DNA of 13,462 nt from Armatimonadota bacterium (GCA_043814095.1 JBDRKI010000033.1:1-13462); one strand, 5' to 3'; positions 197 through 13,462 are shown, counted from the first letter of the stretch. Program-made: numbers and translations. Notes: a model not told the origin generated them from the letters alone.

Positions 197-2965
197 TTAT
201 GCTTTTTTGTTCTTATTATCTTCGGGTTTAATTCTGCTTGCCAGTCTCTGTACAGGCTTTTTATTGGCATATGCAGCGCCTTCTTTTTCCTGATCGTCTT
301 TTTGAACGTCTTCTTTGCTGAGCCTGTTTTCTTTTGAGTATGCTTTGAACTCTATCTTACCTGAACCTTCGTCTTCATTTGCCGCACCGGAAAAATCTGC
401 CTTCTGGTTAAATTTAGCTTCCTGCATATTTACAGGTTTGTCCTGAGCTACACCCTGGGTTTCAGCTGTTTTCTTCTGACCGGCTTCTTTAACCAGTGTA
501 TTTTCCCCAATCAGCTTATCTTTCGCGGATGCCTGTTCTTCATTATTTTCCTTAATCTCAAATATACCCGCATCAGCCGCTTTAGTCTTCTTATCTTCTG
601 ACTCTATGCCTTTAACCACAGCGGTATCTTTACCCTGTTCCTTATCGCCTTTTTCCTCTGTTTTTTCCTGGTAAGCCATCTTAGCCTGTACCGCGTTCTC
701 ATCTTGGTCTAATTTACTTAAGTGCTCTTCTTTATTTTCTTTGAGCTCGTTGACTCTTTTTGCCTGAAAACCAAGAGCGCTTGTCATATCAAGAGACTGC
801 TGTCCCACCATTTCAACCAGCCTTGTACCTATATTCATTGCAACCTGGTCTGCTTCAGATTTCTTCTGTGCTATCTCCTGGTTATATACGGCAATCTGCT
901 GTTCTCTCTGCCTGGCCTCTGCCTCTACTTTTTTCTGAACATCATTAACATTATTATCAGCTCTTGTGCCTTCCTTGTTTAAAGCCACACCGGCCAACTG
1001 CATTCCGGTTCCTGCATATACCATACTCTGACCCGCCGCAGCCGTAGCGGGATTTGACATCATAGCGGTACCCGCGCTGATTAATGCCTGTCCTGCGCTC
1101 TCAAGCTTATTACCTTCACTGTGTTTATCATTAGCGTAATTAGTCATCTCGGGTATAATCTGCTGATTCTGCAAGTCAGCTATCTTTTTCTGGTTTGCCT
1201 GTTCAACTTCATTTGCTTTATGCAGTGTTTCCAGATTTTTTGCTGCATCTTTAGCAGTGCCAAATATATTTTCTACTCCTGATTTAATGCCTTCATTGGT
1301 TTCTATATCATTTTCAAGCTTAAACATTCTTTCTTCTTCTACCCCTATCTCTTCATCCATTATAGCGGCATCGCTTTCTTTCTGCCCTTTTATGTCGCTG
1401 GCTGTTTCTTTAAGCTGGAATTTATCTGCACCTTCAGAGTCAAACTCTGCTGTTACGGATTCGTCCATGCCGAGTGAACCGATATCAAAACCTTCAGCTA
1501 TATTTTCACTGTTCTGGTTATTAAAGGGACTGAATTTTTCTTTTTTAAGAATATCTCCCATGCCGGCCTGTTCTTTAATATCGCCTTCTTTTTCGCCTTT
1601 TCCAAACTGGGCTAATTTCTTATCGAATTCTTTTACGTTTTTAACTCCGCCCTTGCCTTCTTCATCACCGAGCAGAAGATCAATAGGATCATTCTCATCT
1701 GTATAATTCATTGAGGATCTCTGTTCAACGATCTTTTTCATCTGTTCGTCATGCTTTTTATTAAAGACTTTATCGTTATTTAATCCTCTGTCTTTGTGAT
1801 TCTTTACGGCTTCATCATAAGATTTATTAACTGCGCCGCTGTTATCAACATAGAGTCCCGTTGAAGGCTTTACATTGCTCTGTTTGAATTCCTGGAGTTT
1901 TTCGCCGTCTTTACTCTCTGCTGCGGGAGCTGCTTGTCCTGCTTTCGCTTTGGCTTCATTGGCTGCTTTAAGCTGTTCTGTTGCGTCTTCCATCTGCTTT
2001 AAGCTTTCTTCCAATTTTTTGCCGTTAAAAAGGAAGCTGTTTGCAAATATTTCATCAGCATCCATATATTCATCAATCTGCATCTCAGCATCTACTGCTT
2101 TATTGCTGTTGTCTAAATCGGCAATTACCTTTGCCGCTTTTTCATCATCTATCTCTTCGGGATTAATCTCTTCTTTGCCTGAAAACTCAGCCAGAGGGTC
2201 TTTGGAATCCATGTTTTTCGCGATCAGCTTATTTATCTCGTCTTCGCTTACATCCTCGCCTCTTGCTTCTGCCATTTCTTTATGTTTGGCGACAATGATT
2301 TCTTTTATTTCTTTATACTTCTTGGAAGCTTCAACTATATTGCTTTTAAGATTATCCTGTCTGTCTTCTTTAATCTGTTCATGCGCGGCTTCGCTTACCT
2401 GTTTGTTAATTTTCTGGATTTCTTCTTTTGATTTTAAGCTGCCGTCTTCGTTAAATACTATTTCCATGAATCTTTCAGGATTGGTATTGGTTGCCCATAA
2501 ATCAAAACACCCGCATTCATCCTTAACAAACTGTACGGCTTCTTTATACTTTGCGATATCTTCTTCGGACATGCCTTTTACCTGGTCATCAACTTCTTCT
2601 AAGTTATTTTTGCCTTCAACTAATTCTTTAATATCGCCTTTTATTGTAAGCTTCTTTAAATTAACAAGATCCTGTACCGCATCATAATCTTCATCAATTG
2701 TTCTTTTTACTCCGTCATAACCGTTAGCTAACTCATCATTAATTTTTGCAAGTTCGTCTTCTGATACCAGCTCTCCGTCAGATTTCTTAACCAAAAATTC
2801 AAAGTATTCCGGATCTGATTCTTTTACTTTTTTCAGTTCTGAAAATTTTTCCAGATCCAGTACTTTACCTGATTCGGAAGCACCTGTTCCTTGTTCAAAT
2901 CCAACCTGTGATAATGCTTTAGAATTGAGATCTTCATTAATATTAAAATTAATATCTTTAGACAT
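197..2965 (-). CDS. Large acidic coiled-coil hypothetical protein (~922 aa) with one Gly/Ala-rich hydrophobic segment
   Basis: Long open frame, E/K/D/Q/N-rich. Start moved to ATG 2965 (MSKDINF) because GGAGGTG (2978-2972) lies 6 nt upstream. Has its own promoter and terminator. No signal peptide or recognisable enzyme motif. Confidence 0.85.
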   Translation of the reverse strand: MSKDINFNINEDLNSKALSQVGFEQGTGASESGKVLDLEKFSELKKVKESDPEYFEFLVKKSDGELVSEDELAKINDELANGYDGVKRTIDEDYDAVQDLVNLKKLTIKGDIKELVEGKNNLEEVDDQVKGMSEEDIAKYKEAVQFVKDECGCFDLWATNTNPERFMEIVFNEDGSLKSKEEIQKINKQVSEAAHEQIKEDRQDNLKSNIVEASKKYKEIKEIIVAKHKEMAEARGEDVSEDEINKLIAKNMDSKDPLAEFSGKEEINPEEIDDEKAAKVIADLDNSNKAVDAEMQIDEYMDADEIFANSFLFNGKKLEESLKQMEDATEQLKAANEAKAKAGQAAPAAESKDGEKLQEFKQSNVKPSTGLYVDNSGAVNKSYDEAVKNHKDRGLNNDKVFNKKHDEQMKKIVEQRSSMNYTDENDPIDLLLGDEEGKGGVKNVKEFDKKLAQFGKGEKEGDIKEQAGMGDILKKEKFSPFNNQNSENIAEGFDIGSLGMDESVTAEFDSEGADKFQLKETASDIKGQKESDAAIMDEEIGVEEERMFKLENDIETNEGIKSGVENIFGTAKDAAKNLETLHKANEVEQANQKKIADLQNQQIIPEMTNYANDKHSEGNKLESAGQALISAGTAMMSNPATAAAGQSMVYAGTGMQLAGVALNKEGTRADNNVNDVQKKVEAEARQREQQIAVYNQEIAQKKSEADQVAMNIGTRLVEMVGQQSLDMTSALGFQAKRVNELKENKEEHLSKLDQDENAVQAKMAYQEKTEEKGDKEQGKDTAVVKGIESEDKKTKAADAGIFEIKENNEEQASAKDKLIGENTLVKEAGQKKTAETQGVAQDKPVNMQEAKFNQKADFSGAANEDEGSGKIEFKAYSKENRLSKEDVQKDDQEKEGAAYANKKPVQRLASRIKPEDNKNKKA

Positions 2966-3017
2966 AAACCACACCTCCGCCCCCCTCAATATAGAGAGGG
3001 ATTCGTTCTTGGTTATT

Positions 3018-3046
3018 ATTATAATGGGGAAAGGGGTAAAAGTAAA
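3018..3046 (-). promoter_or_regulatory. Putative sigma70 promoter of the 922-aa gene
   Basis: Minus strand TTTACT (3046-3041), 17-nt spacer, perfect TATAAT (3023-3018). Confidence 0.6.
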
Positions 3047-3051
3047 CGAGT

Positions 3052-3098
3052 TTTTGTTACAATTTTGTTAACTTTTTGTTAACAAATTGTTAACATTT
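3052..3098 (-). promoter_or_regulatory. Four 11-bp-period direct repeats (TTAACA x3, GTAACA); candidate OmpR/PhoB-family binding array
   Basis: Plus-strand TTGTTA cores with the G at 3056, 3067, 3078 and 3089 (exact 11-bp period), just upstream of the -35. Confidence 0.7.
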
Positions 3099-3127
3099 CA
3101 GCCCTTTTCCATATATAACTATATAGC

Positions 3128-3153
3128 AGAAAGCGGCTTTTTAGCCGCTTTCT
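3128..3153 (-). terminator. Stem-loop, probable terminator of the M64-SYLF-ETF-QO transcript
   Basis: Perfect 11-bp inverted repeat AGAAAGCGGCT (3128-3138) / AGCCGCTTTCT (3143-3153), 4-nt loop, ~50 nt after the ETF-QO stop. The U-tail is short. Confidence 0.65.
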
Positions 3154-3205
3154 TATATTAAATAATTAATAAAAATTCAACAAACACCTAGAAACCCTTA
3201 TTTTA

Positions 3206-4879
3206 TCACATATTTTTATACCCGGGTCCGCCCCCGCCTTCGGGAGGAGACCATTCTATCTGGTTATATGGATCTTTAATTTCACAGGTTTTACAGTGCA
3301 GGCAGTTTGAAGGGTTCATTTTTAGCTGTTTTTTGCCGTTTTCTTCTTCTATCTCATAAACCTCAGCAGGGCAGAATTTTGTGCATGGATTACCGTATTC
3401 TTCAACACACTTTCCGTTGCATATGCTTAGATCTTCAATTTTAAGATGACAGGGCTGATCTTCTTCATGTTTTACTCCTGAAGAATATACCTCTGTAAGG
3501 CGGTCAAAAGTGAGCTCCCCGTCAGGCTTAAACACTCCATTTTTACTTCTATCTATATACTGGGTTAACTTCTTCATATGAAGATAGTCTTCTTCTGTTT
3601 TAAACCTGTCAATAAGGCCCCTTCCTCCGGTAACAGTCTGCAAACCTATATGCATCATACCCGCAATAAGTCCCTGACTGAAACTCTGGTGAAAATTCCT
3701 TACAGAATAAAGTTCTTTCCATATCCAGCTTGATTTTATCCTGTGATCATAAAGAGATAATTTTTTGTCTGAAAAGTCGCCTGATTTTATCGCTTCAAAA
3801 AGAGTCTGAGCGGCGATAATTCCTGATTTTATCGCAAGGTGTATCCCTTTTAATTTTTTAGCGTTAAGAAGACCAGCTCCCTCGCCTGTAATAATAAAGC
3901 CGTCGCCCGAAAGTTTGCCTATTGAATAATAGCCGCCCTCAGATATCGTCTTTGCTCCGTATTCTATGAGCTTCCCGCCTTCAAGTGTTTTCTTTATCAA
4001 TGGATGTTTTTTAAACTTCTGGAGCTCTTCCTGGATATTAAGCTTAGGATTCTCATAATCAAGCCCGATAGCCAATCCCAGCGCTACCGTATTATCCTTT
4101 ATATGGTAAAGAAAACTGCCTCCGAAAGTTTTAAAATCAAGAGGATATCCGAATGTATGAATAATATTACCTTTTGAAAAATTTTCAGGTTTTACTTCCC
4201 ATAATTCCTTAACACCTGTTACATAATTCTGGGGTGAACACCCTTTATTCAGATTAAATTTATCCATTAACTTCTGAGTTACATATCCGCGGGAGCCCTC
4301 TCCCAGTACCAGCGCTTTTACGCCTATCTCAGCACCGGGCATATGGTTGCCCTTCGGAGTGCCTTCCTTATCTAATCCCTTATCACCAGTTTTAATGCCT
4401 ATTATTTTACCTTCTTCGGAGTAGATAACTTCTTTTACCGGTTCTGAAGTTAAAACCTCTACCCCTTCTGCTTCGCATTTTTTCGCAAGCCATTTTACAA
4501 AATCAGTTAATGAAATAATATAGTTGCCGTGATTATCCATGCCGGGAGGAGGTACAGGGAACCTGAACTGTCCTTTTTTAGTTAAAAAATACATACCGTC
4601 TTTTTTAACTTCTGTTTTAACCGGGATATCCGAACCCCTCCAGTGCAGCATTAATTCATCAAGCACCCCGGGCTCCATAACAGCCCCTGAAAGTATATGA
4701 TCACCAACAGCTTCACCTTTTTCAAAAACGCCTATCATTAAATCAGGAATCTGGTTATCCGGATTTTCCTGGTTATGCTTGTTTATTAGCTGTTTAAGAT
4801 AATATGCCGCGCTTAAATTAGCAGGACCTGCGCCCGCAAACAAAACATCAAAGGAAATTTCAAATTGAGGTTCAGACAT
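3206..4879 (-). CDS. Electron transfer flavoprotein:quinone oxidoreductase (ETF-QO; FAD and 4Fe-4S)
   Basis: N-terminal FAD-binding DVLFAGAGPA and EKGEAVGDHILSGAV; internal LGEGSRG, GAKTISEGG and KGIHLAIKSG; C-terminal ferredoxin-like CTKFCPAEVYE...NCLHCKTCEIKDP...WSPPEGGGGPGY. 557 aa. RBS GAGGGGG at 4890-4884. Confidence 0.95.
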   Translation of the reverse strand: MSEPQFEISFDVLFAGAGPANLSAAYYLKQLINKHNQENPDNQIPDLMIGVFEKGEAVGDHILSGAVMEPGVLDELMLHWRGSDIPVKTEVKKDGMYFLTKKGQFRFPVPPPGMDNHGNYIISLTDFVKWLAKKCEAEGVEVLTSEPVKEVIYSEEGKIIGIKTGDKGLDKEGTPKGNHMPGAEIGVKALVLGEGSRGYVTQKLMDKFNLNKGCSPQNYVTGVKELWEVKPENFSKGNIIHTFGYPLDFKTFGGSFLYHIKDNTVALGLAIGLDYENPKLNIQEELQKFKKHPLIKKTLEGGKLIEYGAKTISEGGYYSIGKLSGDGFIITGEGAGLLNAKKLKGIHLAIKSGIIAAQTLFEAIKSGDFSDKKLSLYDHRIKSSWIWKELYSVRNFHQSFSQGLIAGMMHIGLQTVTGGRGLIDRFKTEEDYLHMKKLTQYIDRSKNGVFKPDGELTFDRLTEVYSSGVKHEEDQPCHLKIEDLSICNGKCVEEYGNPCTKFCPAEVYEIEEENGKKQLKMNPSNCLHCKTCEIKDPYNQIEWSPPEGGGGPGYKNM

Positions 4880-4940
4880 ATTTCCCCCTCTTTTAATTAT
4901 CTAACCTTATTCTTTTTTCCAACTTCAACTATTGAAAAAA

Positions 4941-5663
4941 TTATTTCTTAGTATACTTTTCAATAACCTGTATAAGCTGTTCACCTGCAACGGTGGGTTT
5001 TACAACATTTTCCACTATTATCTGTTTTGTGTCATAAGGCTTGCCGTAAACAGCTTCATTTGCGGCCGAATTAGGCCATATTGTGGTTCCCTGCAGTTTA
5101 AGCCCTATATAGGCGCCGCGTGATCTTGAGTATGAATAAATTATGCTTTTTGCCTGAAGGTCAGCGCCTATATCCGCGTCTCTTCCGGCCGGCCCTATGG
5201 CTATGCCGCCGTCAACACCCAGCTTGAACCTGCTTTGGAGAAGGCCTTCCACGCTGTTCTTATCCATAACAAGAAGAACTATGTCAACTTCATGAACACC
5301 GGCCTGGAAACCTATACTTGCACCCCCTATTTTTAAAAACGCGGGGGCACTCCATTTATTTGTTTCCGGGTTTTTATAAAGGATAACTCCCTTACCGGAC
5401 ATCCCGCCGATAATAAGGCCGCCGCCCTGGGTTTTAGGGAATATCGCGATTGCCTGAGCCGCATAAACCAGCCCTCTGGGTATCCCCATCTCAACTACAT
5501 TGTTAATCTGCTGGAAAACTTTTTCAGCGTCTAAAATTGTCTGCTCTTCCGGAACGATTTTCAACTGCTGCTCCTGCTGTTTAACTGTTTCTTCGGCATA
5601 AGATACCGCGCAGAAACTGAAAACCATTAACGCAACCAGAAGTCCTAAAAATACTTTTTTCAT
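4941..5663 (-). CDS. Secreted lipid-binding SYLF (Ysc84/DUF500) domain protein, ~240 aa
   Basis: Motifs IP..L...AQAIAIFP, GGLIIGGMSGKGV, WSAPAF, GGASIGFQAG, IYSYSRSRGAYIG and AANEAVYG. Signal peptide MKKVFLGLLVALMVFSFCAVSYA. Start set at ATG 5663, with GGAGGA (5673-5668) upstream. Confidence 0.9.
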   Translation of the reverse strand: MKKVFLGLLVALMVFSFCAVSYAEETVKQQEQQLKIVPEEQTILDAEKVFQQINNVVEMGIPRGLVYAAQAIAIFPKTQGGGLIIGGMSGKGVILYKNPETNKWSAPAFLKIGGASIGFQAGVHEVDIVLLVMDKNSVEGLLQSRFKLGVDGGIAIGPAGRDADIGADLQAKSIIYSYSRSRGAYIGLKLQGTTIWPNSAANEAVYGKPYDTKQIIVENVVKPTVAGEQLIQVIEKYTKK

Positions 5664-5679
5664 GAAATCCTCCTCTTTA

Positions 5680-7155
5680 TTATTCACTGTAAAATTTTAT
5701 CCTTTCAATTACTGCCTGCCGGCAGACTTTGCAGAAAGGCTTCGCTCCTTTAGAAAACATTATACAGTCCAGCTCAGGCCTGTACATTTCTTTACTGCAG
5801 TAGCCCGCTCCTTCAAACACTCCTGTTTTACCGTAATTCGCGCAGCCTGAAAGGTAATCGTCAACTTTTACCGCATGCTCCCTGCTGAGCTTTTCCGACA
5901 GCTGTTCATATTTTTCTACTTCAGCAGCCTCAGCACCTTCCCTTTTCATTTTTGCGATTTTCTTGTTCAGTTCCTGTCTTTTTTTCTGGTAAGCAAGATC
6001 CATCTTATCAAATTCCGCTTTCTCCCAGAAAGAAGGAACTGCAATGCCCGAAGAACATAAATTTCCCCATTTTACATTATCCTTATCAAGAAGAGCTGTG
6101 ATATTGGGTTCAACCGGTTCATATCCTTTGGGATAAAAATCATTATATTCTACGGCTGATGTATAATACTCATCCGCGAGCCCCGCGAACGAATGGCCGA
6201 ACTCGTGCAGGAAAACATAATCAGTCCAGTAATTGTCAACTATCGTTGACGCGTATAAATTGTAAATGGCTCCCCCGCCGTACCTGTCCTGGTTAACAAG
6301 CATATAGAGGGTGTCATAGGGAGCGGTTCCGGCTACATTTCTCATGGCCTTATTATCTTCTGTCATAAGGTAGCGTTCTGACCCGAAAAAATCATACCCG
6401 CTGTTAAATGATGTCCTTTTAAATGCCCCGTGAGATGATTCATCACATCCCGGATCCTTAGAAGGAAGAAATACCCCCCTTACATTAAAACTGTCTTTGT
6501 ATTTATCATAAGGCGCCTGCGCCCAGAAGACCTTAAGGAGCCTGTTAACATCATCAATAAATTTCTGCCTTTGATCTTTTGTATATCCTTCGGCAAGGAA
6601 TAATAAATCAACTTTTTTATGGTTATCCCCGGAGATCTGAAAATCTATAACCTCAACGTCTTCCTGTCTTTCTTCCTTTATTATTGTTGTTGAGGAAGGA
6701 TCAATAACACAGCTAAAAACTTCATCAAACTCATTCTTCTTATCCCTTCTTTCTATTGCAAGTTTAATCTTATTCTTCGGATAAGGCATAATTACAGACT
6801 CACTGAAAGTCTTTTTGGCCCCGTTAATAGCGTCGTCTGTGGTAATATACTCCCTGAATATAGAGTCAAAGCCGCGGGAGAATATCATTTTGTTTGTATC
6901 AAGATCATATACCTTAACAAAATATGCGCCGTTATTCATATAATCAACAAGGTTGTTTACGGAACCCGCCCACTGCCCTTCCGTATAAACATTATCGAGC
7001 GAATATATATCTGTAGTGCTGTCGCCTGTATGGTAAAGATCTATCCTCATGGTTTTATCAACAAAATAATCATCAAAATTTACATCAGCGGCATATACGG
7101 AATTTAAAGATAAAACCGTGACAAGTAAAAATACAACCAAAATCATTTTTCTCAT
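5680..7155 (-). CDS. Secreted peptidase M64 family (IgA-peptidase-like) zinc metallopeptidase with N-terminal domain
   Basis: Signal peptide; N-domain FDDYFVDKTMRIDLYHTG; VDLLFLAEGYT; YGGGAIYN; zinc motif HEFGHSFAGLADEY; EPNIT; C-terminal GVFEGAGY...YRP..DCIM...FCKVC. RBS GGGAGA. Confidence 0.93.
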   Translation of the reverse strand: MRKMILVVFLLVTVLSLNSVYAADVNFDDYFVDKTMRIDLYHTGDSTTDIYSLDNVYTEGQWAGSVNNLVDYMNNGAYFVKVYDLDTNKMIFSRGFDSIFREYITTDDAINGAKKTFSESVIMPYPKNKIKLAIERRDKKNEFDEVFSCVIDPSSTTIIKEERQEDVEVIDFQISGDNHKKVDLLFLAEGYTKDQRQKFIDDVNRLLKVFWAQAPYDKYKDSFNVRGVFLPSKDPGCDESSHGAFKRTSFNSGYDFFGSERYLMTEDNKAMRNVAGTAPYDTLYMLVNQDRYGGGAIYNLYASTIVDNYWTDYVFLHEFGHSFAGLADEYYTSAVEYNDFYPKGYEPVEPNITALLDKDNVKWGNLCSSGIAVPSFWEKAEFDKMDLAYQKKRQELNKKIAKMKREGAEAAEVEKYEQLSEKLSREHAVKVDDYLSGCANYGKTGVFEGAGYCSKEMYRPELDCIMFSKGAKPFCKVCRQAVIERIKFYSE

Positions 7156-7311: not shown

Positions 7312-7728
7312 ATGAATAAAAAAACTCAAAAAGGCATAGTCCTTATAACGATACTGGTATTTTTATCGGTATTATTTGTGCTTGGTTTTACCATAACGGG
7401 ATACATGGGCACTGATTACAGATTTGCCGGCATGCAGGCAGATTCACTGCAGGCATTTTATCTTGCAAGAGGCGCAATAGATTATGCCGAAGATGAGTAT
7501 GTGGCATGGAATTTTGATGAAACAGAAGTTGTAGAAATAGAAAAAGAGATAAAAGGAACAGGAAAATTCACGCTCACCGCCACACCTCATTCCAGGGATA
7601 AAGACACAAACGAAGTTGCAAGCGTAAAAGTCATAACAACGGGAACCTGCGTTAAAAGCACGATAACGCTTGCAGCAATAATAATCCCCGGGGAAGACCC
7701 TGAAGTCTATATTTTTTCTCTGAGGTAG
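7312..7728 (+). CDS. PilX/GspK-like minor (pseudo)pilin, cassette 1
   Basis: Basic leader then QKG^IVLITILVFLSVLFVLG: class III signal lacking Glu+5, typical of PilX/GspK. Also the PilX N-terminal motif QAFYLARGAIDYA. Confidence 0.8.
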   Translation: MNKKTQKGIVLITILVFLSVLFVLGFTITGYMGTDYRFAGMQADSLQAFYLARGAIDYAEDEYVAWNFDETEVVEIEKEIKGTGKFTLTATPHSRDKDTNEVASVKVITTGTCVKSTITLAAIIIPGEDPEVYIFSLR

Positions 7729-7732
7729 AAGC

Positions 7733-8314
7733 TTGCAAAAAAACAGTAAAAACATAAAAAAGAAAAACAAAGGACTGACGCTTGTAGAGCTTATGATTGT
7801 ATGCGGCGTATTTCTGCTTCTTATTGTTTTGTCCGGGGATCTTTTTATGAAGGGATGGAAATACACCCGTTTTGCCATGCCCAAAACAGACCAGCTCCGT
7901 GAAGCAAGAAGAATAGTAACAGATATGGGGATGGATATTATGACAAGCGCTAATATTGCTATGAGCGGCATAGACGGTGAAGACGGTTTTGCAACTTACA
8001 CAGATGAAATCGCGCTTATAAAAAAGTTCTATAACGACACAATAGAAGGCGAACCCGTATATATGGGCTACAGGATTACAAAGAATTCCGAAGATGATTT
8101 ACATACCCTTACAAAATACACATACGGGCAGCCTTATGATCCCAATAAATTAAAAATTACAAACTCTAAAACATTAAGTGAAAGGATTAAATATTTTAAA
8201 ATAATACCCGACAAAGAAAATAATCTATATACAATAGAATTGAAAGTCGCTTCAGCCAACCCAGACCAGGAAGTTGTAAGCTTAACAACCACATTTGAGG
8301 GATTAAAACAGTAA
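7733..8314 (+). CDS. PilW/GspJ-like prepilin-type N-terminal cleavage/methylation protein, cassette 1
   Basis: KKKNKG^LTLVELMIVCGVFLLLIVL with Glu+5; GspJ-like QLREARRIVTDMGMDI helix. TTG start with GAGG upstream. Confidence 0.82.
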   Translation: MQKNSKNIKKKNKGLTLVELMIVCGVFLLLIVLSGDLFMKGWKYTRFAMPKTDQLREARRIVTDMGMDIMTSANIAMSGIDGEDGFATYTDEIALIKKFYNDTIEGEPVYMGYRITKNSEDDLHTLTKYTYGQPYDPNKLKITNSKTLSERIKYFKIIPDKENNLYTIELKVASANPDQEVVSLTTTFEGLKQ

Positions 8315-9448
8315 ATGCACTCTTTAAAAAAGAAACAAAAAAAAGAACCGGCAAAGAAAAATAAAAAAGTAAAAAAACCGCTATGGGAGCGTATCCCGAA
8401 TTTCAAGAAGATAAGCCCCGTGACAGTCTCTATATTCGCGCGCCAGCTCGCGGTTCTGTTCAGATCCGGTATAACCATGGTAAGGGCATTAAAGATTTTA
8501 CATGACCAGGCAGAAGATAAAAGATTTAAGGAAATACTCGGGGAGATCTATGTTGATATATGTAAAGGACATACCTTAGCTTATGCTTTCGGCAGGCACC
8601 TTGAGGCTTTCCCCATACATTATGTGGCAATGATACATGCCGGAGAGACCAGCGGGGATCTTGTCAGGATACTCAATAAAATAGCCAGGGACATGGAGAA
8701 AGAAGTCCAGCTGGGAAAGAAGATAAAATCAGCCATGGTATACCCGTTTTTTGTTGTTCTTTCTTCTGTGGCATCCATAATATTTATGATAAAATACATA
8801 ATACCGTTATTCATACCCATGTTTGACCAGGCCAAAAAGACCCTGCCTCTGCCTACACAGTTTCTTATTTACTTATCCAAAACAAGCAACAACCTCAAGG
8901 GGATAATTATAATCCTGGTATCCATGATTATAATATTCCTAATAACAAGGGCATATCTCAAAACAAAGCATGGCAGGCTTGTATCAAGCATTATACTCTT
9001 AAACCTGCCTGTTATAGGCAAGACGGTTAAAATGATATGTATTATAAGGTTCTGCAGGACATTTTCCATGCTTTACGCATCAGGGGTCCCGCTTATACAA
9101 AACTTAAAAACATCAAAAGGGGTTATAGGAAACGAATTTTTATCTGATGAACTGGATAAAGTTATGGAAAACGTACATGCCGTTGACAGCTTCACCATGG
9201 CTTTTGAACAGAGCAGGATATTCCCTAAGATAATAATAGGCATGCTTTCAGTTGGTGAAAGCTCCGGCAAAGTAGCTGAAATTTTAACTAAAATATCAAA
9301 TTTCTATGATGAAGAAATAGAGCATACATTAAACTCTCTTGTGGGAATAATTGAACCCATACTTATAATTTTTCTAGGGGGAGTAACCTCCCTTATAATG
9401 ATAAGCGTATTACTACCTTTATATAATGTACTTTTCAGTTTCGGGTAA
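8315..9448 (+). CDS. pilC: Type IV pilus / T2SS inner-membrane platform protein (PilC/GspF family), cassette 1
   Basis: FARQLAVLFRSGI, MIHAGETSGDL, KIKSAMVYP, LPLPTQ, RFCRTFSMLYASGVP, VGESSG and IIEPILIIFLGG: two T2SSF repeats and three TM segments. ATG directly follows the upstream TAA. Confidence 0.93.
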   Translation: MHSLKKKQKKEPAKKNKKVKKPLWERIPNFKKISPVTVSIFARQLAVLFRSGITMVRALKILHDQAEDKRFKEILGEIYVDICKGHTLAYAFGRHLEAFPIHYVAMIHAGETSGDLVRILNKIARDMEKEVQLGKKIKSAMVYPFFVVLSSVASIIFMIKYIIPLFIPMFDQAKKTLPLPTQFLIYLSKTSNNLKGIIIILVSMIIIFLITRAYLKTKHGRLVSSIILLNLPVIGKTVKMICIIRFCRTFSMLYASGVPLIQNLKTSKGVIGNEFLSDELDKVMENVHAVDSFTMAFEQSRIFPKIIIGMLSVGESSGKVAEILTKISNFYDEEIEHTLNSLVGIIEPILIIFLGGVTSLIMISVLLPLYNVLFSFG

Positions 9449-9460
9449 AAAGGTAAAAAG

Positions 9461-9525
9461 TTTACAAAAATTTAACAAATTGTTAACATTTTGTTAATAC
9501 CTTTGATAGGCTTACATGTTATAAT
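9461..9525 (+). promoter_or_regulatory. Four 11-bp-period TTAACA-like repeats plus extended -10 promoter upstream of the 339-aa gene
   Basis: TTTACA 9461, TTAACA 9472, TTAACA 9483, TTAATA 9494, then TGtTATAAT at 9517-9525. Confidence 0.72.
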
Positions 9526-9560
9526 GGTAATATAAATTTCAATAGATTACGGGATATCCT

Positions 9561-10580
9561 ATGTTAGACAAAAAAACTAAAATAATCATTATAATTCTGG
9601 CTGTAATACTGGCTATAGCAGTATTTGCATATATCCAGGGCCAGTCAGATGTTAACAAAAAAGACGATTCTTCCACAGGAACTTCAGAAGAATCATCCGA
9701 ATCCACAGAAGATGAGAATGCTCCCTTTAAAAAAATGGTTAGGATATACAAAAGAACGATTGGCGGCACACGGAGCGTTCCTCTTGCGGGCGGACCGATT
9801 ATAAGTATAAATATATCAAATCCGCAAAATGCAGGAACATACGTAATTATAGCAAAAGGCGTCTTTGAAGCCACCGGCGGCAGCTTTAATTACGGTAACT
9901 ATATTCTCCCGTACAACTACATAAAAGTGGACGGAAAAACAAGTACAGGTGATGCGGTATTCAATCCCGCAAATACCGATCAGCCCCAGGACGATGGCGA
10001 ATTATTTACCGCAACCTACATGGCAACAATACACCTTACAGAAGGCCTGCATACCTTTGAATGGATAATGGGAACAGAAGCAACGGGCCCGGATAATAAA
10101 GAATATGGCTGCACGGCAAATGCTGTAGGAAAACAGTGTTACATGATTGTGGAATTTTACCCTGATAAAAAAATAGGAGCTGACAATGCTAACGCGAAGA
10201 AAATAGATATACTTGAAAAACATATGCGGGACGGTAAGAATACAGCTGTTGCCGGCTTTAATATGGAGCATGACAGAGGCGTATATGCTGTGGTTTATGC
10301 AAACGCAGACCCCAATGCTGCGTCCATAAACAACCGTGAGGATATCATTTATATTGACAACAAAAACAATGAGATCGGACCAACCTTAAATGAATTTAGC
10401 CAGGGAAGCAATTTTAAAAGAAATATGAATCAACTGGGATTTACAGAAATTACAAGAGTAGACTATCATAATATTTTATGGAACAATAGACACTTTAAAG
10501 AAGCTGTTATAAACAGACCTACTATGGTTGTAAAACTATACCCTAAGGACTTGGTAAAGGAAAAGACTCCTATTGAATAA
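9561..10580 (+). CDS. Membrane-anchored hypothetical protein with Ser/Glu linker and one or two beta-rich domains (candidate adhesin/pilus accessory)
   Basis: N-terminal KKTK followed by a 17-residue hydrophobic helix, then low-complexity DDSSTGTSEESSESTEDE, then beta-strand-patterned regions ending MIVEFYPD and MVVKLYPKD. Overlaps the next gene by 8 nt. Confidence 0.8.
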   Translation: MLDKKTKIIIIILAVILAIAVFAYIQGQSDVNKKDDSSTGTSEESSESTEDENAPFKKMVRIYKRTIGGTRSVPLAGGPIISINISNPQNAGTYVIIAKGVFEATGGSFNYGNYILPYNYIKVDGKTSTGDAVFNPANTDQPQDDGELFTATYMATIHLTEGLHTFEWIMGTEATGPDNKEYGCTANAVGKQCYMIVEFYPDKKIGADNANAKKIDILEKHMRDGKNTAVAGFNMEHDRGVYAVVYANADPNAASINNREDIIYIDNKNNEIGPTLNEFSQGSNFKRNMNQLGFTEITRVDYHNILWNNRHFKEAVINRPTMVVKLYPKDLVKEKTPIE

Positions 10581-11424
10581 AAAGCCGTCTAAAAAAGAAG
10601 GGTTCACATTTATTGAACTCAACATAGCGATTGTAATCCTGCTTATGGGGATACTCTTCGTAGGCTCTTTATTTACATTAAGCTTCAAAAACCATGTAAA
10701 ATCCCAGACAAAGACAACAGCCACATCCCTTGCCCAGCAAAAACTAGCAGAAGCGGCTTCCTTAATAAGGGCAGATAAAACAATATCTGAAACAAAAGGC
10801 ATTTTCAAAGATTATCCCGACTACCAGTATGAGATATCAAAAAAGGGTTTTGACTGGTCTGACCAGCTCCAGCTTCTAACGGTAAAAGTCTGCCGTTATA
10901 TAAACGGTAATCCTTCAACAAGCTCTAAATTATCACAGATAGTTCCCAGGCCTCCTCAGAAATTCAGACTGTACGGGGAACGCTGCCCTAAAGATGTAAT
11001 ACTTGAAGGAAACATAGATGAAGATAACTATATTGTTTCCATAGAAACAAATATACCTGACCCCGGCATATACATAATAAATATATGCGGAACTTTCTTA
11101 ATCCCTACTGACAGATTCATAGATTCCAAAATAACGGCAACCAGCCAGATCTGGTATTATAAAGAAGACGGTGAAAAAACCAAGCTCGGTGAGTCTTCAA
11201 TAAATAATTTTGCAAAAAGACCGGGCGATGACGAATATTCCAATTACCTTAATCCCAACTTTACAGTCATAACAGAACTTGACCCGGGTAAATATACATT
11301 TAAATGGCTGGCATCGGCTCTGCCTTCGGATGAAGAAGTAATATGCTATAAAAATGCCGCAATGATGACCATAGAGTTCCTGCCTGAAGATATGGCAGAG
11401 CTAAAAGAACTTGGCGATCAATAA
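10573..11424 (+). CDS. PilV/GspI-like minor pilin fused to a ~145-aa C-terminal beta-rich domain
   Basis: KKEG^FTFIELNIAIVILLMG with Glu+5; GspI-like core ATSLAQQKLAE...GIFKDYPDYQYEI...LLTVKV; extra domain after a PRPP linker. TTG start. Confidence 0.82.
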   Translation: MNKKPSKKEGFTFIELNIAIVILLMGILFVGSLFTLSFKNHVKSQTKTTATSLAQQKLAEAASLIRADKTISETKGIFKDYPDYQYEISKKGFDWSDQLQLLTVKVCRYINGNPSTSSKLSQIVPRPPQKFRLYGERCPKDVILEGNIDEDNYIVSIETNIPDPGIYIINICGTFLIPTDRFIDSKITATSQIWYYKEDGEKTKLGESSINNFAKRPGDDEYSNYLNPNFTVITELDPGKYTFKWLASALPSDEEVICYKNAAMMTIEFLPEDMAELKELGDQ

Positions 11425-11537
11425 AATACCCATCTATTACCTTTTTTATGCCTCTCTTATTAATCTTTATACACAAAGGATAATTCTTCTATTAAAAGAA
11501 ACAATATTATATATTTTATTTGCTTCTTGGAGTATTA

Positions 11538-11942
11538 ATGAGCAAGGAAAACCGTAAGGGTTTTGCCCTTATTACTGTATTATGTTTTATATCCATACTC
11601 TTTCTGCTTGGAGTGGCCATGACAGGCTATGCGGGAAGCGATCTTCATTTCGCTAATATGCAGAAAAACTCCATACAGGCGCTTTATCTTGCATTATCAG
11701 GTATAGAATACGCTTCGGCGGAATGCGGAAGCTGGAATTTCTCCGGATCTGCGCCTATCGTAAAAACAGAAAAAGTGCCTGATGCGGGAGAATTTACCGT
11801 CTCTGCGAAAGCATTCAAAATAAATAATGTTATTCAATCCATAGATGTAACTTCTGTAGGACAGGCAGGCAAAAACAAAAGAACGGTATACGCGGAGCTT
11901 TCCCCGGGCGGCAGTATTCAAAAAATATACCCGCAGAGGTAA
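11538..11942 (+). CDS. PilX/GspK-like minor (pseudo)pilin, cassette 2 (~134 aa)
   Basis: RKG^FALITVLCFISILFLLG (no Glu+5) and QALYLALSGIEYA. Paralog of 7312-7728. Start at ATG 11538 with GGAG at 11529-11532. Confidence 0.82.
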   Translation: MSKENRKGFALITVLCFISILFLLGVAMTGYAGSDLHFANMQKNSIQALYLALSGIEYASAECGSWNFSGSAPIVKTEKVPDAGEFTVSAKAFKINNVIQSIDVTSVGQAGKNKRTVYAELSPGGSIQKIYPQR

Positions 11943-11945
11943 TAA

Positions 11946-12458
11946 ATGAGGAAAAAGACAAAAGGATTCTCTCTTGTTGAAATGCTTCTTGTATGCGGCA
12001 TCTTCCTTATGGTCATAGTCCTTGCGGGGGATCTTTTCGTAAACGGATGGATATATACAAGGCGCGCCATACCAAGAACAGACCAGTTAAGAACTTCAAG
12101 AAGAGTTGTAAATGATATAACGGATAATATCATGATGAGTAAGGAAATCTACTCCGTAGATCCGCTTGTTTTAGCAAAAAGTTACCGCGATACCAGCGCA
12201 AATATAATTACTGAAATTATAGGGTATATTCCGGAGAAGCAGACTAATATCCTGAGTAACATGTATCAGGTTAATTACAGGAAACCCTATATACCCTCAA
12301 ATCCACAAATTATATCTTCAAAGCTGCTGGGGAAGAATATAAGAAAGTGCGAGATAACCACTGATAACTCAATATATAACATAGATCTGGTAATATTTTC
12401 ACCCAGCCCTGAAGAAGATGATATTACCCTTAAAACAAAAGTTATGAGGAAAATGTAA
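11946..12458 (+). CDS. PilW/GspJ-like prepilin-type protein, cassette 2
   Basis: KKTKG^FSLVEMLLVCGIFLMVIVL with Glu+5. Paralog of 7733-8314. Confidence 0.85.
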   Translation: MRKKTKGFSLVEMLLVCGIFLMVIVLAGDLFVNGWIYTRRAIPRTDQLRTSRRVVNDITDNIMMSKEIYSVDPLVLAKSYRDTSANIITEIIGYIPEKQTNILSNMYQVNYRKPYIPSNPQIISSKLLGKNIRKCEITTDNSIYNIDLVIFSPSPEEDDITLKTKVMRKM

Positions 12459-12461
12459 AAA

Positions 12462-13462
12462 ATGAGTCCTTTAAAGAAAAAAGAAAAAAAACTGAGTTTA
12501 TCCGAGCGGTTTTTAAAATACCAGAAGGTTAATCCCGTATCCATAGCTATCTTTACAAGACAGTTCGCCATTTTATTTATGTCGGGAATACCGATATCAA
12601 AATCCTTATGGATTTTATACGAACAGACTTCTGATCCTAAACTGAAATCCATTCTGGGGGAAGTCTATATAGATGTCTGCAAGCACGGATATCCCCTTTC
12701 TGCCGCTTTCGCGAAACACCCCGACGCCTTTCCTGTCCATTATACCGCAATGATAAAGTCCGGAGAAACAGGGGGGAAACTTGAACAAATTTTAAACCGG
12801 ATGGCCAATAACCAGGAAAAAGAAGTTGAATTTATGAAAAAAATCAAGGCAGCTATGGTTTATCCTGTTGTAATTATAATTGCATCTCTCTTAGCCGTAA
12901 TTTTTATGATAAAATATATTATACCTCTCTTTACGCCTTTCTTCGCGCAAAGCAAAAAAGCTCTGCCTGTTTCCACGCAGATTATTATAGGTTTTTCTAA
13001 AATAATGAATAATTTCTTGGGTATAATGATATTTTTAATTGTTACAGCCCTTATCATTTACTTATTTAGGATGTATATAAAAACCAAAAACGGCAGATTG
13101 CGGTTCAGCATATTTGTATTAAACCTTCCTGTTCTCGGGAAAGCCGTTAAAATGATATCTATTGTAAGATTCTGCAGAATTTTTTCAATGCTTTACGGCA
13201 CGGGGATACCGCTACTTACAAACATGGAAGCATCAAAAGCGGTTTTAAATAACGCATTCCTGGATATAGAGATGGAAAAAATAATAAAAAAAATTCCCGA
13301 AGCTCCAAGCTTCACGGATGTATTTCACCAGAGCGGTATATTTCCCAGAACCATAACAAGCATGATTATGGCCGGAGAGCAGTCCGGTACGGTTTCACAG
13401 TCCCTTGCTAAAATATCAAACTTTTACGATGAAGAAATTGAAAATACTTTAAACACATTAAT
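12462..13462 (+). CDS. pilC: Second PilC/GspF-family platform protein, partial (runs off the window; missing from the ORF track)
   Basis: Manual translation from ATG 12462 is open to the window end: MSPLKKKEKKLSLSERFLKYQKVNPVSIAIFTRQFAILFMSGIP...MIKSGETGGKL...KIKAAMVYP...RFCRIFSMLYGTGIP...AGEQSG...KISNFYDEEIENTLNTL. Colinear with 8315-9448. Confidence 0.93.
   Translation, partial: MSPLKKKEKKLSLSERFLKYQKVNPVSIAIFTRQFAILFMSGIPISKSLWILYEQTSDPKLKSILGEVYIDVCKHGYPLSAAFAKHPDAFPVHYTAMIKSGETGGKLEQILNRMANNQEKEVEFMKKIKAAMVYPVVIIIASLLAVIFMIKYIIPLFTPFFAQSKKALPVSTQIIIGFSKIMNNFLGIMIFLIVTALIIYLFRMYIKTKNGRLRFSIFVLNLPVLGKAVKMISIVRFCRIFSMLYGTGIPLLTNMEASKAVLNNAFLDIEMEKIIKKIPEAPSFTDVFHQSGIFPRTITSMIMAGEQSGTVSQSLAKISNFYDEEIENTLNTL

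Follow-up and report, generated by a model that had tools for sequence, protein, structure and literature searches.

Two tandem minor-pilin cassettes, each with a PilC/GspF-type platform gene, on an Armatimonadota contig without an assembly ATPase

In Streptococcus sanguinis, PilA is a GspI-like subunit without glutamate at position 5 (Glu5) that starts a three-pilin tip complex with modular adhesive pilins, and in the HIJK order K binds via I (PMC9934059). Several core minor-pilin complexes for specialised filaments were reported in Synechocystis (10.64898/2026.02.12.705559), and in Nanosynbacter TM7x the PilC of each of the two type IV pilus (T4P) systems, T4P-1 and T4P-2, has its own PilB (PMC11623550). 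The platform protein PulF is described as having three membrane segments, the parts Cyto1 and Cyto2 and an N-domain that is not essential, with a channel lined by Tyr-Pro in the first segment (TMS1) and Glu-Pro in the third (TMS3), the Y168/E370 pairs (PMC10790770). Type IV filament biology asks how the platform hands pilins to the growing filament and how the cell picks among alternative tip complexes; the model systems have either a single platform for each motor or one for all minor-pilin sets. Here, we describe a window of 13,462 bases, the whole of contig C33 of an Armatimonadota bacterium (genome G000, 2.50 Mb in 129 contigs, 99% complete and 1.4% contaminated), which carries two minor-pilin cassettes, each with a gene for a PilC/GspF-type platform protein. 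We consider with moderate confidence that these are modular tip-priming cassettes with dedicated platforms, dependent on a motor, a prepilin peptidase, alignment proteins, a secretin and a major pilin encoded elsewhere.

Eight plus-strand genes fill the window from position 7312 to the contig end. The order of a Glu5-less minor pilin (K), a second minor pilin (J) and a platform protein (F) occurs twice, with gaps of 4, 0, 3 and 3 nucleotides (nt) within the triplets, no frameshifts and all frames intact. The preliminary description of this DNA had reported the order K-like, J-like and PilC/F twice, tightly coupled and unframeshifted, and our open reading frame (ORF) calls and the Pfam and NCBIfam matches agree with it. 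It had omitted two genes, X (9561-10580) and an I-like pilin (10573-11424), as the continuation of cassette 1, the unit of which is K-J-F-X-I. The end of X overlaps the start of I by 8 nt, and AT-rich spacers of about 110 nt lie between F1 and X and between I and K2. The window had also been described as lacking an ATPase, a prepilin peptidase, a major pilin and a secretin; none of the four, with T2SSE as the ATPase family, was found on C33 in the Pfam, NCBIfam and profile searches either. Denise et al. 2019 reported the type II secretion system (T2SS) in Armatimonadetes, and their models of complete type IV filament systems ask for the joint presence of ATPase, platform and major pilin (PMC6668835). 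An ATPase and a major pilin were not found beside the platform genes of C33, the 3' side of which is cut.

Since the cassettes are without motor, peptidase, alignment proteins, secretin and major pilin, they would have to use machinery encoded elsewhere. We propose that the window holds a modular tip-priming cassette for type IV filaments, either a T4P or a T2SS pseudopilus, in two copies that arose long ago by tandem duplication. K would be the Glu5-less cap or initiator and J a GspJ-fold pilin, and cassette 1 would add I, a modular pilin whose head probably serves in binding, and X, a putative membrane-anchored relative of this head. The minor pilins would assemble in the membrane into a complex that starts the filament and ends at its tip. 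Each cassette encodes its own N-domain-less PilC/GspF platform protein, and each F would work as the platform for the pilins of its own cassette. The cassettes would draw on a single prepilin peptidase, a few PilB/GspE-type ATPases and the PilMNOPQ/secretin genes on other contigs.

The genome census supports the earlier suggestion of shared machinery encoded on other contigs, in so far as the remaining components lie there and are scarcer. T2SSF domains were matched 24 times, in 12 genes (two each on C33 and C102, and one each on C69, C83, C112, C5, C115, C48, C124 and C28), compared with five PilB/GspE-type ATPases, one prepilin peptidase (PilD, on C60) and three to four secretins (C60 has two and C5 one, and C20 has a weak match). 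The five ATPases are encoded on C69 (578 amino acids, aa), C5 (478 aa), C47 (563 aa), C119 (407 aa) and C75, where the gene is interrupted by an in-frame TAG, and three of the five have no F neighbour. Only two platforms stand beside an ATPase. One is on C69, with the order PilB-PilT-PilC followed by two glycosyltransferase-like genes and a PilA-type pilin; the other belongs to the complete T2SS of C5. No T2SSE match over the cut-off was obtained on the eight contigs with the remaining ten F genes. C60 encodes a PilA-like protein, PilD, PilM, three small genes and two PilQ. The census suggests that several platforms may share ATPases.

Alternatively, the platforms could be parts of dispersed complete parallel systems, each with a private ATPase and only the peptidase shared, that is, of an ordinary multi-locus T4P, multiplied. 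Type IVa pili are encoded in multiple loci (PMC6668835), the 13 ATPase-family genes (five PilB/GspE-type and eight PilT-like) roughly equal the 12 platforms in number, and orphan PilB-type genes are found on C47, where three pilin-like genes adjoin, and on C119 and C75. We regard this explanation as rather unlikely, as there are only three orphan PilB-type genes, one of them TAG-interrupted, against ten orphan platforms, and one PilM-N-O-P-Q locus and one PilD only. In the systems that have been studied, the PilT family serves retraction, which also counts against private ATPases.

Three observations touch the orphan genes. The TAG on C75 (C75:18894-20045, L026:6429-8060) splits the PilB-type gene into ORFs of 310 and 177 aa, which two PilT-like genes adjoin, and could be a pseudogene mutation, a sequencing error or a read-through codon. 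The PilB-type ATPase gene of C47 (L027:3700-7639) has a pilin-like gene and two unknown genes on its 5' side and is followed by a histidine kinase/response regulator set; there is no platform gene on that contig. On C83, a lone full-length PilC gene (C83:4461-5774) is flanked by queA and gmk, and neither pilin nor ATPase genes are in its vicinity.

Returning to the tip-priming cassettes, phmmer and Pfam searches identified seven K-J-linked F genes in the genome, namely the two of the window (C33a and C33b) and those of C115, C48, C102a, C102b and C28. The order is K-J-F followed by a pilin with NHL repeats on C115, K-J-F with a convergent propeller pilin on C48, and K-J-I-F on C28 and in both cassettes of C102, which adjoin RHS/DUF6531 proteins. 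The F gene of C112 has TPR and BNR/PEGA neighbours. The two C102 cassettes are divergent (L014:9024-13823, minus strand; L014:16860-19907, plus strand); the RHS-repeat/DUF6531 proteins have 1599 aa and, at the contig end, at least 1016 aa, and a TPR protein is encoded between one RHS gene and its cassette.

F1 (8315-9448, plus strand) is a 377-aa protein with two T2SSF domains (Pfam PF00482, 1.6e-54). F2 (12462-13460, plus strand), its paralog, also has two T2SSF stretches (3.3e-42), the second of which is cut by the contig end after residue 333, so that F2 is about 44 residues short of its end and its TMS3 is outside the assembly. Both F1 and F2 match the GspF and PilC models from around model position 56. 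The F1 sequence matches positions 56-396 of the 401 of the NCBIfam GspF model and scores far higher on GspF and PilC models than on ComGB. It has no equivalog-level score (TIGR02120, 303.9 bits with a cut-off of 424; PilC models, 272.6 with a cut-off of 700), and by its domain content F1 is classed as a PilC/GspF family member and not as a named equivalog. F1 keeps both Tyr-Pro in TMS1 (AMVYPFF) and Glu-Pro in TMS3 (GIIEPIL), and F2 keeps Tyr-Pro (AMVYPVV). Among the F proteins of the genome, Tyr-Pro is present in 12 of 12 and Glu-Pro in 10 of the 11 that reach TMS3. Before the Cyto1 column there are 28 residues in F1, which are Lys-rich, and 18 in F2, compared with 59 in the PilB-linked PilC of C69 and 43 in the GspF of C5. 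The N-domain is not present in F1 or F2, and the precomputed family PF28597, found on generic PilC matches, was not found in them either. Six of the seven K-J-linked F proteins of the genome are without the N-domain.

In a quick maximum-likelihood tree of 34 F proteins, the backbone of which is unresolved, one tight clade (support 100, branches 0.04-0.34) holds the PilB-linked PilCs and another clade (support 100) the GspE-linked GspFs. The K-J-linked F proteins all fall outside both clades, on long branches (0.47-2.3) and in several groups, and the cassette F genes are not recovered as one clade in this tree. F1 and F2 are sisters with branches of 0.47 and 0.48, and the protein closest to this pair (support 99) is an F without the N-domain, J-linked, from G001, the only same-order genome among the relatives. 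The nearest outside homologue of F1 is 54% identical, and the next ones are at most 38% identical. A contig scan with F1, F2 and P0002 gave seven loci at 32-36% identity, six from Verrucomicrobiota and one from Moorella, and the F model re-found the F gene in five of the seven. Of these five, the four from Verrucomicrobiota are lone, with no ATPase or pilin match in their flanks, and the Moorella locus has the order PilB-PilT-PilC, then pilins. Three of the Verrucomicrobiota loci (L081, L084 and L085) hold lone PilC genes of 404-410 aa.

Concerning the minor pilins, J1 (7733-8314, plus strand, 193 aa) and its paralog J2 (11946-12458, plus strand, 170 aa) have canonical prepilin sites with Glu5, KG/LTLVE and KG/FSLVE (the slash marks the site), and match the Pfam N_methyl family at 3.2e-5 and 3.1e-5. 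I has such a site as well (G/FTFIE), with the same motif. K1 (7312-7728, plus strand, 138 aa) and K2 (11538-11942, plus strand) have KG/IVLIT and KG/FALIT without Glu5; the ATG of K2 is at 11538 and its ORF is open from a TTG at 11520. K1 has nine paralogs in the genome, and in the alignment none of the nine K paralogs shows Glu at this position.

The K proteins match the GspK N-terminus (NCBIfam NF037980, positions 1-55) with 21.6 bits for K1 and 20.0 bits for K2, the cut-off being 130. The AlphaFold2 (AF2) model of K1, with a predicted local distance difference test score (pLDDT) of 89.8, has a long helix and a five-strand sheet. Its best matches in the PDB are four chains of S. sanguinis PilA 7o5y (probability 0.99-1.0, TM score 0.39-0.51, E 0.02-0.1), and the next are an XcpGHIJK model and ComZ. 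The GspK body, of about 300 aa with an inserted alpha-domain, is not present in K1, and the genuine GspK of this genome (301 aa) is encoded in the T2SS locus of C5. Since K1 is Glu5-less, has a predicted PilA-like fold and matches GspK in its N-terminus only, K is likely a cap or initiator in its working but not a GspK. The designation PilX/K-like in the preliminary description would then be apt for the function, with no Glu5 and a cap-like role, but not for the body, which has no GspK part and a predicted fold nearer to S. sanguinis PilA.

The ten best Foldseek rows in the PDB for the AF2 model of J1 (pLDDT 85.5) are all EpsI:EpsJ, XcpVWX or XcpGHIJK chains, and the next are GspJ (3ci0_J) and XcpW (3nje), with all E values from 5.3e-4, a probability of 1.00 and TM scores of 0.41-0.56. 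According to this model, J1 has the GspJ fold. The J proteins gave no GspJ or PilW match in Pfam or NCBIfam at E of 0.01 or less, and the K and J profiles run against PDB sequences matched N-terminal pilin helices only.

The predicted fold of J could be taken to mean that the cassettes are T2SS-like pseudopilus modules, which export or display a cargo and do not supply alternative tips to a surface pilus. Lectin-like heads on X and I would suit this idea, as would the proteins at the sister cassettes, namely RHS/DUF6531 on C102, pilins with NHL and DUF5122 propeller heads on C115 and C48, and TPR and BNR/PEGA on C112, and the genome does have a complete T2SS with its own full-length GspK on C5. 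We consider this unlikely. No cassette contains GspC/L/M, a GspG-type major pseudopilin or a secretin, and the neighbours vary from cassette to cassette. Moreover, the GspJ match does not discriminate between T2SS and T4P, because few PilW-type structures have been solved.

Cassette 1 of the proposed tip-priming system includes two further proteins. I (10573-11424, plus strand) is a 283-aa modular pilin with an N_methyl match, a C-terminal beta-rich head and a weak N-terminal match to PilV TIGR02523 (23.2 bits, cut-off 52.2). Its paralogs are found on C95, C113 and C28. X (9561-10580, plus strand, 339 aa) has an N-terminal membrane helix, an acidic Ser-rich linker and an I-head-like domain, with no firm Pfam or NCBIfam family and no prepilin motif. 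By BLASTP, residues 80-202 of X and 154-272 of I are 27% identical (E 5e-5), a domain of about 125 residues common to X and the head of I. The protein atlas gave leads of carbohydrate-binding or lectin type for X, below 0.9 only.

To model a complex, we combined the three chains J1, I and K1 and scored K1 as the partner. The K-J-I model passed its controls, with 0.79 against 0.31 for the best of three. This mark is attained by 116 of the 157 solved complexes and by 2 of the 215 mismatched pairs, counts that apply only roughly here, given three chains and our own small alignments. The runs agreed in at least 84% of the contacts with a partner pLDDT of at least 78, and replacing I lowered the score to 0.31. 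Most of the low-error contacts of K1 are with residues 15-58 and 93-125 of I, the predicted main partner of K1 in this model. It suggests that K, J and I may form a tip complex.

Comparison of the two cassettes showed an identity of 52/134 (39%) for K1 and K2, of which 33/65 is in the first columns and 19/69 in the rest, and of 67/169 (40%) for J1 and J2, with 35/58 in the N-terminal columns and 32/111 in the rest. The hand counts made earlier for the N-termini (34/62 for K and 36/60 for J) are near these values. F1 and F2 are identical at 178/332 positions (54%). The proportion of nonsynonymous differences (pN) between the cassettes is 0.27-0.39, against a saturated proportion of synonymous differences (pS) of 0.76-0.78; with pS above 0.75 a dN/dS ratio is not derivable, and pN is given against pS instead. 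The tandem duplication of the cassette appears to be old and both copies appear to be constrained, because pS is saturated while pN is 0.27-0.39. Among the seven cassettes, C33a/C33b and C102a/C102b alone stand out as the closest, in K, J and F together. As both pairs are closest in all three genes alike, this points to an origin of each pair by whole-cassette duplication. The closest pairs, together with the J-linked sister F, also bear out the earlier statement that the platform paralog travels with its tip set.

Redundant or decaying paralogs with no distinct role could also result from repeated duplication. The heads have strongly diverged, and the cassette F branches (0.47-2.3) are long compared with those of the canonical PilC clade (0.04-0.34). 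We consider decay very unlikely, because the frames are intact, pN is well below pS, the Tyr-Pro and Glu-Pro motifs are retained as counted above, an orthologous J-linked F exists in the same-order relative, and the family occurs across the phylum. The preliminary description had named relaxed selection on one copy as a finding that would speak against its proposal, and the low pN and the equal branches of F1 and F2 argue otherwise.

The cassettes are a real and conserved feature. The K-family profile matched 83 of 201 genomes of the phylum, including one match in G127, which is flagged as unpublished, and every sampled family except f12 (0/114) and f20 (0/3). T2SSF was found in all 40 relatives searched, with 2 to 57 domain matches. 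Twenty loci were retrieved with flanks of up to 8 kb, and 15 of them hold a K-J or J set. An F gene adjoins the set in eight of these 15, five times as F-K-J-I and three times as K-J-(I)-F, and an ATPase-family gene is present in the flank of one of these eight loci. The arrangement is thus not special to this genome. A published description of it as standard in the lineage had been named earlier as a reason to give up the claim; the arrangement is indeed common in the lineage, but no description of it was found in the literature searched, which yielded no paper on platform paralogs within minor-pilin operons without ATPases.

Several findings weigh against dedicated platforms that share a motor. 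Seven of the 15 flanked K-J loci of the relatives have no F, and on C123 of this genome the order is K-J-I-I' without F, where the 3' end overlaps the heads of C113 and C95. A dedicated platform is not required for K-J sets, because C123 and these seven loci have K-J-I sets without it. In most of the 40 relatives the T2SSE matches amount to at least half of the T2SSF matches, the exceptions being G000, G008 and G014, and in G000 a one-to-one pairing of 13 ATPases, the eight PilT-like ones included, with the 12 platforms is possible. Some cassette F proteins of the relatives keep the N-domain, so its loss is not defining. Co-divergence of K or J with F over the seven cassettes was not significant (Mantel p 0.23 and 0.63), and none is resolvable beyond the two recent cassette pairs. 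The score of the complex model may stem from its resemblance to GspIJK/XcpVWX complexes with known structures and from hydrophobic N-terminal helices that pack generically, and the 3' neighbourhood of F2 lies outside the assembly. No match of the C33 end to any other contig end was found, and hence no continuation of F2 within the assembly.

Other K and J genes were found as well. On C44, a K-like and a J-like gene occur among further pilin-like genes, and the flank that was covered contains no F. The 3' end of C123 overlaps the 5' end of C113 and the 3' end of C95, an assembly fork that could be a duplicated region or strain variation. C113 and C95 carry two versions of an I-like pilin, each followed by a mandelate racemase/enolase-type gene.

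Selection of the tip specificity by the platform is a pure conjecture and is weakened by the K-J-I sets without their own platform. A bolder proposal, to which we assign a low probability, is that in this lineage the platform, and not the minor pilins alone, is exchangeable in type IV filament machines. A few PilB motors and one PilMNOPQ/PilD set would then serve about ten N-domain-less platform paralogs, perhaps as mixed trimers. Each platform would dock its own K-J-I set and so decide the tip or adhesin of a filament.

In the remainder of the window, four unrelated genes occupy 197-7155 on the minus strand. They encode a 930-aa protein (197-2989) that matches neither Pfam nor NCBIfam families, an ETF-ubiquinone oxidoreductase, a SYLF/Ysc84 lipoprotein and an M64 peptidase; the 930-aa ORF lies 3' of the other three, and all are divergent from the cassettes. 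Bases 1-149 of the contig recur with 96% identity at the end of C83 (reverse strand), with shorter matches on C38 and C23, and are a dispersed repeat located at contig ends. Promoter-like sites (26, compared with 23.0 +/- 5.6 in shuffles) and terminator-like sites (7, compared with 4.9 +/- 2.2) were uninformative. No 8-mer was common to more than four of the regions upstream of the nine K genes, and the common ones are AT-rich. The search for sequencing runs gave no RNA run; the three runs that it listed are all of DNA, and their word shares are 0.06-0.10.

With twelve platforms against five assembly-type motors, and seven of these platforms beside a priming set, the genome would be a natural experiment on platform-pilin specificity and motor sharing, provided that expression and partners are measurable. 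Tools that demand an ATPase, a platform and a pilin together would miss such cassettes, and their frequency in uncultured phyla may be underestimated.

Compared with the known systems, the most evident difference is in the platform. Myxococcus has three minor-pilin clusters, and the sets of Synechocystis and Myxococcus share a single PilC platform, whereas here most sets bring their own. Archaeal PilC paralogs come as PilB-PilC pairs, and comGB of the competence pili follows the ATPase gene comGA, whereas F1 is on a contig without ATPase. The ComGB-type platform is described as N-domain-less, like F1 and F2, but with Gln-Pro in TMS3, where F1 has Glu-Pro (PMC10790770). The likeness to Synechocystis lies in several alternative core minor-pilin sets per genome that would specialise filaments (10.64898/2026.02.12.705559). 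Nanosynbacter TM7x, too, has several platform paralogs in its genome, which go with different pilin sets, but those platforms adjoin their own assembly ATPase (PMC11623550), whereas 10 of the 12 platforms here have no ATPase on their contig.

The tip complex of GspIJK, XcpVWX and PilVWX likewise consists of co-encoded minor pilins with a GspJ fold and one Glu5-less subunit. The placement of K mainly against I in our model is the order described for HIJK (PMC9934059). Unlike GspIJK and XcpVWX, the K of these cassettes has 138 aa without the GspK alpha-domain body, there is no H/FimU adapter gene, no family model is matched at its cut-off, and the set adjoins its own platform gene, away from an ATPase. 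S. sanguinis has one pil locus, one platform and one ATPase, whereas here the set is multiplied, each copy with a platform paralog but no ATPase. The PilA-PilB-PilC tip of S. sanguinis agrees with our cassettes in its small Glu5-less initiator and head-bearing modular pilins, a "rudimentary" three-pilin set (PMC9934059).

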